Positions 5,970 through 18,474 of a DNA stretch of 64,000 nt are shown here, one piece after another (the stretch's first letter is position 1; every line of letters begins with the position of its first letter). Origin of the DNA: an uncultured Novosphingobium sp. (GTDB taxonomy: Bacteria > Pseudomonadota > Alphaproteobacteria > Sphingomonadales > Sphingomonadaceae). The notes under the pieces were generated by a model. It did not search any database and had not been told where the DNA came from. It was given only the letters and a program-made list of their open reading frames with translations. Made by a program: the position numbers and the translations under genes. The stretch covers positions 47,595-111,594 of the forward strand of contig CAYPRK010000010.1 of NCBI GenBank assembly GCA_964413325.1. Reading direction: 5' to 3'.

Positions 5970-7178
5970 TCAATAGCTGTAGGCGTTGATCGAACTGCGC
6001 TTGAAGATCGCGGTAACCGAATTGAGCAGCTGGGCCAGCTTGCCGATCTGCACCGAGTCCGATGTCGAGACGTAGACAAGGTCCTGATCGCGCATCTGGA
6101 ACGACTGCGCGAGCATCATGCCCTCGGCCGACTTGAAGTTGACGTGGTAGACCACCGGCACGGTATCACCCAGCGTCAGGTAATCCGGCAGCGCGGTCGT
6201 GCGCAGCTTCTTCGCTATGTCGGCCTGCTCGTAGCGCAGCACATAGACGCCTGCCGGATCGGCCTGCTTGTCGATGAGACCGCCGCCGTTGCCGATCGCC
6301 TCGGCCAGCGTCAGGCGGGCCTTGCCGAAGTAGACTTCGCTCTGCTTGTTGGTCGCACCGAGCACGACGACGCTCTGCGGTTCGTGATCGAGCGTGACGA
6401 GATCACCCGGGCGCAGGAAGATGTTCTGCGTGGGATCGCGCAGCACCGCCGACATGCGCAGCGAACGGACCTGACCGCCGCGGGTGAGCTGCACCAGCAT
6501 CTCGCGCGCCTTGCCTGTCGTGCCGCCCGCCGTGGCAACGGCGTCGAGCAGCCGAGTGCCGCTGAGCGCCAGCGGGAAGCGACCGGGCTTGGACACGTCG
6601 CCAGTGACGGTGACGGCGTTGTCGACGGTCTGGACGACCTGGACCAGCGCCTGCGTCTCGTTCGCCTTGCCGCGCAAGGCCTTGATGATATCAGCCTGGA
6701 CCTGACGCGGCGTGCGCCCGGCAGCTTTGACCTCGCCCACAAAGGGGACGATGATCGTGCCGGACTGATCGACCGTCTGGTTCGGCACGGTGGCCGATTG
6801 CGCACCGCTCAGACCGACCGGGGCCTGACCATTGGGGTACTGGTTCACGGGTCCGAGCAGGCCGCTGCCAAACTCCCAGAGCGTGACCGAAACGGTATCG
6901 CCGATGTGAATCGTGCCCTGCGGGACCACTTCTGGAGTGGTCAGCGGCGAAAGATCGTCACCGACCTTGCCGACGAGCGCGGTCAGCACGAGGCGGTCAA
7001 CCGGGACCATCATGAACGGCGCGTTGTCAGCCGATTCCCGGTCGATCGCCTGCAGCGAAGGGCCTTGCGCGGGCATCGCCGCGCAGCCGCCGAGGGCCAG
7101 TGCCAGGCTGGCGACGGCGGCGGCCCTGAGCAATGGGCCGCGCAGCGGTGAGGTGCGGTGGGCGGACGGTTCAATCAT
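5970..7178 (-). CDS. Polysaccharide export outer-membrane lipoprotein (Wza/KpsD/BexD/CtrA family)
   Basis: Lipobox 'LALGGC'; Poly_export motif 'VDQSGTIIVPFVGEVKAAGRTP'; SLBB repeats ('VTVTGDVSKPGRFPL', 'LTLAEAIGNGGG'); 'FQMRDQDLVYVS'. Start set at MIEPS (GTG at 7184 is an alternative). Confidence 0.9.
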   Translation of the reverse strand: MIEPSAHRTSPLRGPLLRAAAVASLALALGGCAAMPAQGPSLQAIDRESADNAPFMMVPVDRLVLTALVGKVGDDLSPLTTPEVVPQGTIHIGDTVSVTLWEFGSGLLGPVNQYPNGQAPVGLSGAQSATVPNQTVDQSGTIIVPFVGEVKAAGRTPRQVQADIIKALRGKANETQALVQVVQTVDNAVTVTGDVSKPGRFPLALSGTRLLDAVATAGGTTGKAREMLVQLTRGGQVRSLRMSAVLRDPTQNIFLRPGDLVTLDHEPQSVVVLGATNKQSEVYFGKARLTLAEAIGNGGGLIDKQADPAGVYVLRYEQADIAKKLRTTALPDYLTLGDTVPVVYHVNFKSAEGMMLAQSFQMRDQDLVYVSTSDSVQIGKLAQLLNSVTAIFKRSSINAYSY

Positions 7179-7282
7179 GTTCACGGCGGACCTCGGAGTC
7201 TGATGGACAAGTGCGATGGGCTCCGCACGCCGGCGCATGGCCTTCGGGAAACCCGGACGAAACGATGGGCGGCGCGGCGCGG

Positions 7283-16069: not shown

Positions 16070-16080
16070 CGATTGCCCCA

Positions 16081-18474
16081 TCACACCACTTTGCGGACGG
16101 CAGACGCGTCCTTCGTATTGCCGCCCTCACCCGGCTTGGCCTTGCGCGCGCTGTTGCGGGCAAGCCCGGCCATCATGCGGATAAGCACATTTTCCGGTCC
16201 GCCAGCGTCACCGCCTCGGGCTTTCGCTTCGCCCGCCGCCACGCGCAGGTGCATGCCGCGCGAGAGCAGCAGCAGATCGCGCATGCCGAGCGGCGTGGAC
16301 GCCAGCATCGGGCGGATCAGGCGGAAGCTGCTCGCCGAAAGATCGTAGCCGCGCTGCTGCATCCATGCAGGCGAGCGCGGCAGGATCGTGCCGAGTTCGG
16401 CCATCACCGTCTGGCAGCGAAGCCCACCCAGCTGGGCGCGCGCGATGAATTCAGGCTCGTGTCCGAGCTGTCGGTAGTCGGTGGAAAAGCCACCGAGGCC
16501 GAGGAAGGCAGTGCGGTCCACCAGCAGCGGCAGTTCGACAAGGTCGTTCCACAGGAAGCTGTCGGTCGGGCCGCTCACCACGATGGCGCGGAGCTTGCCC
16601 GGCCGCGGCCCGTTCCTGCTCTCGGTTCGCTCGCGGTAGAAGTAATTGAGCACATGCGCCTGCGTGCTGTCGGCGCAGCTTAGCAGGGTAGCCAGCGCGC
16701 CAGGATCGAGCCGCGCGCCTTCCCACAGAAACAGCATCCGCGCCGCATCGGTTTCTTCCGCCAGCCGATTGGAGGCCGCGCCCGCATCGAGATCGAACGC
16801 ATCGACCACCTTGTGGGCAAGGTCATAGCGCGCCAGCACGGCGCAAGCGGCTTCGCGAGCCCCGGCCTCTTCCGCATCGATGGCGACCAGCACTTCGCCG
16901 AGTGCACCTTCCTGCAGGGCGAGACTGGCCAGCGTCTGGTCCAGCGCCACTTGGTCGCCCGTGTAGTAAATCGCGACCGCAGCCGTGGTCGCGGTTACCC
17001 CATCAGCCGGCGAGTTTGCGGCACGAGCCGCCGCGATCAGTTCCTCGCGCAGCGGGCCGCCCAACTGACGATGGAAACGGCGCCAGATATCGAGGTTGAC
17101 GTGGTTATCGAAGCTGGGGTGTGGGACCATGCCGCCCAGCAGCAGCGCTTCTTCCAGCTTATCGCCGAGCGAGACGGGGTGCGGCTTGCACAGCACGGCG
17201 GCGTGATCTTCCGGCGCGATCAGTTCGGAATTGCCGCCAACGTCGGTTGCGACGCAGGGAATACCGCAGATCGCGGCTTCGTAGACCGCCATCGAACTGT
17301 TTTCGATGATCGACGGCATGACCGCGAGCCGTGCGCCGCCAAGCAGGTATTTCACTGCATCATACTGCTGGAAATCCGTGAGAATCTGGACTTCGACCGG
17401 CCAAGTCCGCGAAACTTCGCGAATGAACTCGTCCGTATCGAAATCCGGATGCGAGGGCATGCGGCCGCCGGGCTTGCCCATGAAGGTGATGCGTTTGGGC
17501 AGTGGCACGCCCTTGCGGATCAGCCGCCGGATCGCCTGCACGAAGATGAACAACCCCTTGCGCGCCTCAAGCCGGCCAAAGAACACGATCTCGTCGATCG
17601 GCATGCGCTGACCGCGCGGCAGTGCGCGGCTATCCATCAGCGGCTCGAGCTTGGCGAACGTGGCAACGTTGGGCTGCACGAAGCAGCGGCCCTTTGGCAG
17701 GGCATAGCCCTGGCTCGCCATCCAGCGCAGCAGATGGAGGCTGCCGCCGATGACCACATCGGCCATTTCCACGCTGCGCCGCTCGGCATGGATCTTCACG
17801 AGATCGTCCGCTCGTTCGAGCGTGTGCGAACCATAGAGCCGGTTCCACATCCACGGCGAGGATGTCTTGACGAGGAACAGTGTGTCCTGAAACGCGAGGC
17901 CCTGCCGCTTGGCCAGCAGCGAAAGGTAAGCCGTACCGCGCCACTCCGAAACGTGCACGACGTCCATCGGATGCAGCATCAGGTAGCGCATCATGTTGTA
18001 GGGCACGCGCAGCCAGCGATCGGCGTTGGAAGCAAACCCTTCGGCCGCCGCGTAGTCCGGACAGGGGATCAGCTTGACCCCGCGTTCGGCGTAGTGCTCG
18101 ATCCAGTAATCGATGGTCTCGGTCTCGACCTTGTTGCCGCGCAAGTAGAGCACGGTCGTATCGAACCCGGCTTCGGCCAGCATGAACGCCAGCGCGCCGT
18201 AGGTATTGCCGATGCCGCCGTTGCGGACCGGGCCCATGACTTGTTCGGTTGCGATGCAGATGCGCGTACGCCGCGTGCCCTCAGCCCAATGCGCGAAGGA
18301 ATCGAGGCCCGGCAGCTTGGTCGTCCACGCCTTGCCGCTGCGCGGTTGCAGCGCGTCCAGCCGCCCCTCCAGCACCGGGGAGCACAGCAGGCGTTCGACG
18401 TCGTTGATCGCCGCGCCGGTTTTCGCCGGGCGCTTCGCCTTGCTCTCGCTGGTTGTGCTGCGCCGTGCTGACAA
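16081..18474 (-). CDS. Two-domain glycosyltransferase (N-terminal GT4/GT-B plus C-terminal GT2-like domain)
   Basis: 'VRNGGIGNTY', 'FFGRLEARKG' and 'VMPSIIENSSMAVYEAAICGIPCVATDVGG' are GT4-like. The C-terminal 'LDQTLASLALQ...LFLWEG' region is GT-A-like. TTG start with RBS GAGAGGGG. Confidence 0.85.
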   Translation of the reverse strand: MSARRSTTSESKAKRPAKTGAAINDVERLLCSPVLEGRLDALQPRSGKAWTTKLPGLDSFAHWAEGTRRTRICIATEQVMGPVRNGGIGNTYGALAFMLAEAGFDTTVLYLRGNKVETETIDYWIEHYAERGVKLIPCPDYAAAEGFASNADRWLRVPYNMMRYLMLHPMDVVHVSEWRGTAYLSLLAKRQGLAFQDTLFLVKTSSPWMWNRLYGSHTLERADDLVKIHAERRSVEMADVVIGGSLHLLRWMASQGYALPKGRCFVQPNVATFAKLEPLMDSRALPRGQRMPIDEIVFFGRLEARKGLFIFVQAIRRLIRKGVPLPKRITFMGKPGGRMPSHPDFDTDEFIREVSRTWPVEVQILTDFQQYDAVKYLLGGARLAVMPSIIENSSMAVYEAAICGIPCVATDVGGNSELIAPEDHAAVLCKPHPVSLGDKLEEALLLGGMVPHPSFDNHVNLDIWRRFHRQLGGPLREELIAAARAANSPADGVTATTAAVAIYYTGDQVALDQTLASLALQEGALGEVLVAIDAEEAGAREAACAVLARYDLAHKVVDAFDLDAGAASNRLAEETDAARMLFLWEGARLDPGALATLLSCADSTQAHVLNYFYRERTESRNGPRPGKLRAIVVSGPTDSFLWNDLVELPLLVDRTAFLGLGGFSTDYRQLGHEPEFIARAQLGGLRCQTVMAELGTILPRSPAWMQQRGYDLSASSFRLIRPMLASTPLGMRDLLLLSRGMHLRVAAGEAKARGGDAGGPENVLIRMMAGLARNSARKAKPGEGGNTKDASAVRKVV

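Follow-up and report, generated by a model that had tools for sequence, protein, structure and literature searches.

A conserved sqdB-capsule-export gene cluster in Novosphingobium and other bacteria suggests an undescribed sulfonated surface polysaccharide

Of the described systems, that of the Vi antigen (Salmonella Typhi and Burkholderiales; TviB-E and VexA-E) is closest in layout to the locus considered here: a dedicated enzyme, TviB, supplies a UDP-sugar that is anionic at C6 through a dehydrogenase-made carboxylate, TviC is a 4-epimerase-like short-chain dehydrogenase/reductase (SDR), and VexA-D provide export. The sole Vi glycosyltransferase (GT), TviE, is a GT4 single-site polymerase, whilst TviD is an SGNH-like Cys-His O-acetyltransferase with tetratricopeptide repeats (TPR; PMC8760489). 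The group 2 capsules of E. coli and Neisseria are polymerised in the cytoplasm by multi-domain GTs and exported by KpsMTED, i.e. an ATP-binding cassette (ABC)-2 permease, a nucleotide-binding domain (NBD), a polysaccharide co-polymerase (PCP-3) adaptor and an outer-membrane polysaccharide export (OPX) protein. Sulfoquinovose (SQ) is known from thylakoid-type sulfolipids, the pathways to which (sqdB-sqdD-sqdC in Rhodobacter, sqdB-sqdX in cyanobacteria, SQD1-SQD2 in plants) begin with the conversion by SqdB of UDP-glucose and sulfite to UDP-sulfoquinovose (UDP-SQ). SQ is also a component of Sulfolobus protein glycans (PMC8987622), and the Agl3/Agl16 N-glycans are a precedent for UDP-SQ in a non-lipid surface glycoconjugate. 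Here we analyse a 64-kb window, i.e. the whole 64,000-nucleotide stretch of contig CAYPRK010000010.1 from an uncultured Novosphingobium sp., a soil/water bacterium, in which sqdB lies within a cluster of capsule-export genes at positions 5970-18474. The conservation of this sqdB-capsule-export cluster suggests that bacteria make an undescribed sulfonated surface polysaccharide, and we put at roughly 60% the probability that a system resembling that of the Vi antigen in layout incorporates UDP-SQ, or the 4-epimer derived from it, into a surface glycan for export.

The protein encoded at 13199-14449 (minus strand, 416 aa) reads as a bona fide SqdB. Its residues 1-385 align with residues 1-382 of Arabidopsis SQD1 (1qrr; E=1.4e-92, 44% identity over 377 aa), and on this homology it is assigned the conversion of UDP-glucose and sulfite to UDP-SQ. 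The UDP-SQ-synthase fingerprint [ST]MG...Yx3K (PMC8987622) is intact as T146-M-G and Y189-H190-M-T-K193, E-Q-R...P-Y-S and Q-G segments are present as in SQD1, and the NCBIfam UDP-SQ synthase model matches at 1e-99, a point of likeness with the Sulfolobus system. The score against the curated NCBIfam equivalog (NF041015) is 334 bits versus a cutoff of 575, a shortfall to which we give little weight because many bacterial homologues, at 70-94% identity, carry the Joint Genome Institute (JGI) name UDP-sulfoquinovose synthase, so that the model appears narrow. Identity to Novosphingobium sp. proteins is 93-94%. In a neighbour-joining tree most SqdB proteins of the gene set described below fall in one clade; since the tree is rough and three of them (from loci L050, L091 and L092) are placed elsewhere, no strong conclusion is drawn from it.

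All plausible genes between 5970 and 18474 lie on the minus strand, with open reading frame (ORF) boundaries that agree with those of an earlier interpretation of this DNA made from the letters alone (hereafter the sequence-only reading); gene assignments are from Pfam and NCBIfam searches. That interpretation had sqdB directly upstream of kpsE-kpsM-kpsT, a glycoside hydrolase (GH), a GSCFA gene and an OPX gene, several of them at tight junctions, and both the ORF coordinates and the junction lengths bear this out. Downstream of sqdB are genes for a KpsE-like PCP-3 inner-membrane/periplasmic adaptor (11734-13209, 491 aa), a KpsM-like ABC-2 permease (10880-11737, 285 aa), a KpsT-like nucleotide-binding protein (10135-10896, 253 aa), a secreted TIM-barrel protein with a GH-like fold (9038-10138, 366 aa), a GSCFA protein with C-terminal TPR (7283-9028, 581 aa) and an OPX lipoprotein of the Wza/KpsD/VexA class (5970-7178; Poly_export, SLBB and SLBB_2), the junctions being -11 (sqdB/kpsE), -4 (kpsE/kpsM), -17 (kpsM/kpsT), -4 (kpsT/TIM barrel), +9 (TIM barrel/GSCFA) and about +104 nt (GSCFA/OPX). 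Overlapping by 11 nt, sqdB and kpsE are translationally coupled. Upstream of sqdB lie the genes for a two-domain glycosyltransferase, here called GT4-long (16081-18474, 797 aa; Pfam GT4 families), and for an extended-SDR nucleotide-sugar 4-epimerase-like protein (15092-16084, 330 aa; Pfam Epimerase E=1.7e-56) whose start overlaps the GT4-long stop (-4 nt). The sequence-only reading had this order right but not the immediate neighbourhood, having missed the 642-nt interval between the epimerase gene and sqdB. This interval contains the gene for a conserved cytoplasmic protein of 116 aa with no assigned function (14507-14857, 57 nt upstream of sqdB) and a 234-nt AT-rich intergenic region (14858-15091), the likely promoter of the operon that follows. 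Because this promoter-like stretch separates the epimerase gene from that for the 116-aa protein, two transcription units are likely, i.e. GT4-long-epimerase and small gene-sqdB-kpsEMT-TIM barrel-GSCFA-OPX.

The adjacency of sqdB and kps genes, which the sequence-only reading had made a test of its proposal, recurs across orders and classes; it is therefore far beyond chance, and chance adjacency is ruled out. Among the 80 best SqdB loci, sampled at one genome per species, three from Sphingomonadales (L001, L002, L003) have the order GT4-long, epimerase, small gene, SqdB, KpsE, KpsM, KpsT, TIM barrel, (GSCFA), OPX (hereafter the module), and three metagenomic Sphingomonadales contigs (L081, L085, L087), with SqdB proteins 76-80% identical to that of the window, keep it. 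In a less biased sample of five loci fetched via GT4-long alone, an SqdB homologue lies within ~5-18 kb in all five. Among these five, a contig from Nevskia (Gammaproteobacteria; L089) carries all components in shuffled order, two Reyranella-like genomes (L088, L091) have the module set, with sqdB 5'-truncated in one of them, and a 315-kb contig (L092) combines the module with a Capsule_synth gene, a PAPS (3'-phosphoadenosine 5'-phosphosulfate) reductase and a sulfotransferase. On a single contig of Caulobacter sp. S45 (L083/L084/L090), GT4-long and the epimerase gene lie ~18 kb from small gene-sqdB-cysD-cysNC. Sulfate-activation or sulfite-forming genes stand beside the module in two loci (L083, L092). 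The same Caulobacter cluster has its small gene and sqdB directly after genes for a 2415-aa type I polyketide synthase (PKS) and an alpha-oxoamine-synthase-like aminotransferase, and also encodes further GTs, a sulfatase-family protein and three Capsule_synth (KpsC/S-like) proteins; this gene content suggests an unusual lipid-linked sulfoglycan.

Associations of sqdB with polysaccharide genes are also found outside the module. Canonical kpsM/kpsE-kpsT genes lie directly beside sqdB in two Paracoccus loci (L032, L037) and in a metagenome-assembled genome (MAG; L028) that adds a GT2 and a DUF4422-GT8 protein. On a plasmid-like Rhodobacterales MAG contig with ParA/ParB-like genes (L026), sqdB lies within a polysaccharide locus encoding UDP-glucose dehydrogenase (UGDH), a 645-aa GT4, several GT2s, three sulfotransferase-domain proteins, O-methyltransferases, an OPX protein and KpsT, which makes it a candidate locus for a glycan both sulfated and sulfonated. 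In these arrangements sqdB has entered kps/polysaccharide loci independently, in Paracoccus as in other alphaproteobacteria. Other sqdB contexts differ, with an SqdX-like 386-aa GT4 (cyanobacteria and others) or with GalU/PGM/SDR genes (Caulobacterales). Comparative genomics strongly supports the core proposal of the sequence-only reading, that a surface glycan destined for export draws on UDP-SQ, be it instead of or in addition to sulfoquinovosyl diacylglycerol (SQDG). The support comes from the sqdB-kpsE coupling, from the conservation of the module from Sphingomonadales to a gammaproteobacterium, from the independent associations just described and from the absence in the window of a gene for a lipid-type sulfoquinovosyltransferase (short SqdX-type GT4 or GT8 SqdD).

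By Pfam and NCBIfam, the window encodes an ABC-2 permease, a PCP-3 adaptor and an OPX protein together. The KpsE-like protein, with a low-complexity N-terminal extension of ~130 aa, matches TIGR01010 (BexC/CtrB/KpsE; E=1.3e-46) and the VexD model (E=3e-7); the KpsM-like protein matches PF01061 (E=8.6e-10), NF050053 KpsM (E=5e-18) and VexB (E=3e-8); and the OPX protein, which carries a LALGGC lipobox if read from its likely start, the M at 7178 (the longest possible ORF extends to 7433), matches NF011658 (E=4e-37) and VexA (E=1e-21). Since all score under the equivalog cutoffs, we regard the export proteins as divergent members of their families. The combination of a KpsE-type adaptor with an OPX protein rules out O-antigen-type Wzm/Wzt export; sphingomonads, besides, have no lipopolysaccharide.

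The nucleotide-binding protein has its best PDB match in the KpsT chain of the KpsMT-KpsE complex (8TSI/8TSH, E=2.9e-28), and its Walker A motif is retained, with the signature SSGM replaced by SVQT, the Walker B D-E by D-N and the H-loop His by Arg. We aligned ten module orthologues (from the window, L001-L003, L081, L085, L087, L089, L091 and L092) with four canonical sqdB-linked KpsT proteins of Paracoccus type and with 8TSI. Walker A is retained in the module orthologues, whereas none of the ten has the catalytic Glu (Asn in nine, Gly in one) or the signature motif, and nine have no H-loop His; the four Paracoccus-type proteins and 8TSI have canonical motifs. If the NBD is a homodimer, these losses would impair its two ATP sites alike, and were the protein paired with a canonical partner both composite sites would still be compromised. 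The conservation of the motif loss implies that it is selected for, and without the hydrolytic residues transport probably does not proceed via a normal ATP-hydrolysis cycle. Export by Kps-type machinery, as the sequence-only reading had it, thus holds for the presence of KpsE, KpsM, KpsT and OPX but has to be qualified for KpsT, since all the orthologues that we examined have degenerate catalytic motifs. The 64-kb window also contains no kpsF or kpsU, and its lack of kpsC/kpsS or vexE, together with the degenerate KpsT, indicates that this is not a standard Kps system.

Set against group 2 capsules, the window accordingly shares the ABC-2 permease, NBD (nearest to KpsT), PCP-3 adaptor, OPX protein and, in GT4-long, a multi-domain GT, but differs in the missing kpsC, kpsS, kpsF and kpsU, in the lost catalytic residues of the NBD and in having a sulfo-sugar precursor gene inside the export operon. 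The parallel with the Vi antigen extends further: SqdB would correspond to TviB as the dedicated source of a C6-anionic UDP-sugar, the SDR epimerase to TviC, GT4-long to TviE as a GT4 enzyme with extra non-GT4 sequence that is the only GT, the GSCFA-TPR protein to TviD as an SGNH-like Cys enzyme with TPR for decoration, and OPX, KpsM, KpsT and KpsE to VexA-D, the four export proteins matching the VexA, VexB, VexC and VexD models below cutoff. In contrast to Vi, however, the anion would be an SqdB-made sulfonate, neither GT4-long nor the GSCFA protein matches a TviE or TviD model (NCBIfam), so that their architecture is analogous only, and the epimerase matches TviC well below cutoff (101 bits versus 760). 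Moreover, the window has no VexE-type acyltransferase, its GT4-long adds a GT-A-like domain, its KpsT is degenerate, and a secreted TIM-barrel protein and the 116-aa protein are additional. The Vi parallel is thus one of system layout and not of homology between the synthesis enzymes. With the sulfolipid pathways the window has in common the first enzyme and a transferase candidate of GT4 type, as are SqdX and SQD2, but this candidate belongs to an 800-1100-aa two-domain type and sqdB is coupled to envelope-spanning export machinery. At the Pfam level and over all plausible genes, the 64-kb window contains no GT8-type sqdD, as the sequence-only reading had also noted, no short SqdX-type GT4 (~380 aa) and no SqdC.

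GT4-long itself is a candidate polymerase or sulfoquinovosyltransferase. Its N-terminal domain is a very strongly conserved retaining GT-B/GT4 domain with the E-x7-E motif intact (E391...E399), and in the AlphaFold2 (AF2) model (pLDDT 85.4) this part resembles glycogen synthase, MshA and SPS by Foldseek. A further ~250 aa match the WrtF fucosyltransferase (TMt 0.66-0.71); from the alignment length and beta-alpha-beta pattern we read this match as belonging to a C-terminal domain with a predicted GT-A fold, and Pfam GT2 (PF00535) is detected in some homologues. At the expected DXD position this GT-A-like domain has W584-x-G586, an invariant D561-x-D563 lying one loop earlier. Identity with an ordinary SqdX was rejected, there being only generic GT4 similarity (25% over 160 aa to the sqdB-linked GT4 of L077) and a length two to three times greater. 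Most GT4-long homologues are longer than that of the window, at 1050-1130 aa (P0133, P0165, P0179 and P0217 among them), through an extra ~280-aa C-terminal domain with repeated G-W-x-W / Y-G-F motifs that neither the window protein nor its closest Novosphingobium relatives have; that this domain binds carbohydrate is a guess. The epimerase, which accompanies GT4-long in all related loci, has UDP-glucose 4-epimerases as its best PDB relatives (4zrm, E=3.7e-53) and does not have the D-E of 4,6-dehydratases.

The TIM-barrel protein has no sequence match in Pfam, NCBIfam or PDB, and its family (54 homologous clusters, all annotated hypothetical) is confined to this module. Its AF2 model, from a 39-sequence alignment, has a signal helix and a (beta/alpha)8 barrel (pLDDT 89.4, pTM 0.86) for which Foldseek gives GH18 EndoH/chitinases and the PgaB C-terminal hydrolase domain as best matches (E=2e-5 to 5e-4), with modest TM scores (query-normalised 0.27-0.43, target-normalised 0.26-0.53). 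An invariant D198-x-E200 occupies a GH18-like position. The earlier label of glycoside hydrolase therefore stands at the level of the fold, though not of the sequence family, and the model fits a periplasmic polymer-processing hydrolase, short of a family assignment. The GSCFA protein (PF08885, E=1e-43) is SGNH-like, with a Cys within G-S-C-F-A and a D-x-x-H-P near the domain end; a PDB sequence search for it gave nothing useful, and it is a candidate polymer-modifying O-acyl/acetyltransferase or esterase. Its slot is variable, being occupied by Methyltransf_23 in five loci (L085, L087, L089, L091, L092), by nothing in L002 and by a small ORF elsewhere, as is typical of polymer-decorating enzymes in capsule/exopolysaccharide (EPS) loci. 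The gene for the 116-aa protein adjoins sqdB or GT4-long in every module locus. The protein has no Cys and no Pfam match, is predicted to be cytoplasmic, and by tblastn is 97% identical in L001, 81% in L003, 67% in L002 and 43% in Caulobacter sp. S45, with matches also in the Nevskia and Reyranella loci; nearly all of the 67 representative clusters of its family are stand-alone at ~120 aa. In the only long member (P0343, 409 aa) the small domain is fused to a C-terminal region whose sulfotransferase matches are weak and below threshold and which has RSGT / RDPRD-like motifs, a hint only.

On this basis the following route may be proposed. SqdB would, by homology, convert UDP-glucose and sulfite to UDP-SQ, and the GalE-like epimerase would either supply a second UDP-sugar or 4-epimerise UDP-SQ. 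GT4-long would act as the polymerase at the inner face of the inner membrane, adding the sulfo-sugar, possibly with a second sugar, to a lipid-linked acceptor with alpha-retaining chemistry, as do the GT4 enzymes SqdX, SQD2, Agl16 and TviE. The chain would then pass the envelope via KpsM/KpsT-KpsE-OPX, which homology identifies as components of a capsule translocon of ABC type (group-2 / Vi-like), whilst the secreted TIM-barrel enzyme may have the role of PgaB, PslG and BcsZ in other systems, trimming or processing the chain in the periplasm, and the variable GSCFA-TPR or methyltransferase protein may decorate the polymer. The 116-aa protein would be an obligate accessory or regulatory subunit. 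In its most specific form, which we regard as possible though rather unlikely, the product would be a Vi-like (near-)homopolymer of alpha-linked 6-deoxy-6-sulfo-hexose (SQ or its 4-epimer), moved by a KpsMT-like translocon whose NBD binds but does not hydrolyse ATP, export being gated or energised non-canonically, e.g. driven by polymerisation.

Several points weigh against an exported sulfo-glycan. The product is deduced from gene context alone, as we found no published bacterial SQ-containing polysaccharide, and the sequence of GT4-long does not reveal which donor it uses. A working ABC pump is not guaranteed with a KpsT that has no catalytic Glu, signature motif or H-loop His. No KpsC/KpsS Capsule_synth or VexE-type anchor enzyme is encoded in the 64-kb window, whilst Capsule_synth (KpsC/S) genes are present in the related loci L090 and L092. 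Given the 234-nt gap, GT4-long/epimerase and sqdB/kps are probably on separate transcripts. One locus (L086) has a close SqdB (76% identity) with no module within 10 kb, and the absence of an SQDG synthase refers to the 64-kb window alone.

The alternative that survives best, although we consider it unlikely, is that the product is a short SQ-containing glycolipid or lipo-oligosaccharide which the Kps-like/OPX apparatus carries to the outer membrane, i.e. an anionic, phosphate-free outer-leaflet lipid. Such a lipid would be plausible in sphingomonads, which are without lipopolysaccharide (LPS), and KpsMT-type substrates are lipid-anchored glycans (structure family 8TSH/8TSI). The window has a single GT gene, the Paracoccus association is minimal (kpsM/kpsE-kpsT-sqdB without an adjoining glycosyltransferase), and the Caulobacter sp. 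S45 locus, where a PKS and an alpha-oxoamine-synthase-like aminotransferase are linked with SqdB and GT4-long, suggests that the lipid moiety is unusual. The module nevertheless extends past the sphingomonads to Nevskia, Reyranella-like and Caulobacter genomes, from genera that make LPS, so that LPS replacement cannot be its general rationale. The secreted GH-like enzyme, the OPX protein and the variable decoration slot are, moreover, typical of polymers, and the extra C-terminal domain of the longer GT4-long homologues, with its repeated aromatic motifs, would point the same way if the guess of carbohydrate binding is right.

More doubtful is the proposal that SqdB serves membrane SQDG only, that it lies near kps genes through shared regulation or genomic hitch-hiking, and that no sulfo-sugar enters the exported glycan. 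SqdB orthologues of ~70% identity do sit in lipid-type contexts, in genera reported as SQDG producers, the close SqdB of L086 has no module within 10 kb, and the absence of sqdX and sqdD covers the 64-kb window alone. Against this, co-localisation holds across classes despite shuffled gene order, sqdB is coupled in translation to kpsE, it is found in each of the five loci reached through GT4-long, and at least two further independent associations of sqdB with polysaccharide loci exist; in addition, no SQDG synthase gene is present in any module locus examined.

That GT4-long, the epimerase and SqdB instead place SQ glycans on a secreted protein, e.g. the 4419-aa filamentous-haemagglutinin (FHA)-like protein encoded 256 nt upstream of GT4-long, is highly improbable, since, for all that this adjacency is kept in L001, L002, L003 and L087 and that SQ is known in Sulfolobus protein glycans (PMC8987622), the giant gene is not beside the module in L081, L085, L089, L091 or L092, no oligosaccharyltransferase or O-glycosylation ligase was seen (the window has no AglB-type enzyme such as would be expected for the dolichol-linked protein N-glycans of the archaeal system), and KpsE and OPX indicate export of a free glycan.

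As regards control of the cluster, the AT-rich region upstream of the small-gene/sqdB operon contains a perfect palindrome with 8-bp arms, CTTGATGG-N8-CCATCAAG, at 14938-14961, which could be an operator or a hairpin; a conserved operator was rejected, as the intergenic regions of relatives align poorly and L001, the closest of them, preserves the palindrome only in part. A sigma-70-like match at 15054-15025 is the sole one on the minus strand near a gene start and is not above chance for the region. That the 642-nt gap holds a riboswitch or another kind of RNA element was likewise discounted, Rfam giving no match and the gap carrying a protein gene instead. Phosphate control of the locus found no support, a Pho-box scan with a single E. 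coli-type consensus giving one chance-level match, inside kpsE, and none near promoters. The rationale of the sequence-only reading, a polymer that spares phosphate as teichuronic acid does under phosphate limitation, accordingly has no backing in the sequence, and its description of the capsule as free of uronic acid is likewise unsupported.

The window has a G+C content of ~66% and the closest relatives of its proteins are from Novosphingobium. Upstream of GT4-long, the FHA-family gene (18731-31990, minus strand; C-terminal DUF3739) is followed further upstream at 32504-41349, also on the minus strand, by genes for Porin_5, a TonB-C protein, ExbD, a DUF2341-LamG-ExbB fusion, an ShlB/FhaC-type TpsB and a 697-aa PBP-like protein. 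On the plus strand, a type II secretion set (GspE, GspF, a GspH-like pseudopilin, the GspD secretin and GspK) is encoded at 41822-51690 among ORFs without Pfam match and precedes a cell-wall hydrolase (51711-52637); in L085 this hydrolase and T2SS-K are likewise encoded near the module. Beyond the other end of the cluster are genes on the plus strand for an amino-acid permease (4574-5932), convergent with the OPX gene, and for a 1364-aa protein (444-4538) with weak pentapeptide-repeat and SdrD_B/CarboxypepD_reg-like matches. The window also encodes Lon, MlaA and a tRNA.

A full-text literature search, the coverage of which was incomplete and which is therefore no proof, returned no paper in which sqdB and kpsM both occur, nor any account of SQ in a capsule, EPS or O-antigen of bacteria. 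Polysaccharides go unmentioned in a review of SQ cycling from 2026 (PMC13436972), and current SQ-cycle reviews take SQDG as the source of SQ. ABC-type capsule loci are already known; what is new here is the precursor, the accessory proteins and the degenerate ATPase. If the proposed reading is correct, the module would define a new class of strongly acidic surface polymers free of phosphorus and carboxylate, would contribute a new sulfoquinovosyl-polymerase to glycobiology, and would offer, in a KpsT naturally devoid of hydrolytic residues, a means of studying how ABC-type capsule translocons function. Novosphingobium rhizosphaerae LY (L003) is a cultivated carrier of the module with a complete genome, so the reading is directly testable. 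An exported sulfo-glycan would also constitute a non-photosynthetic source of SQ in the organosulfur cycle; were the homopolymer form of the proposal to hold, these bacteria would make a polysulfonate capsule of a kind unknown in bacteria and provide a second, heterotroph-derived source of SQ in the environment.

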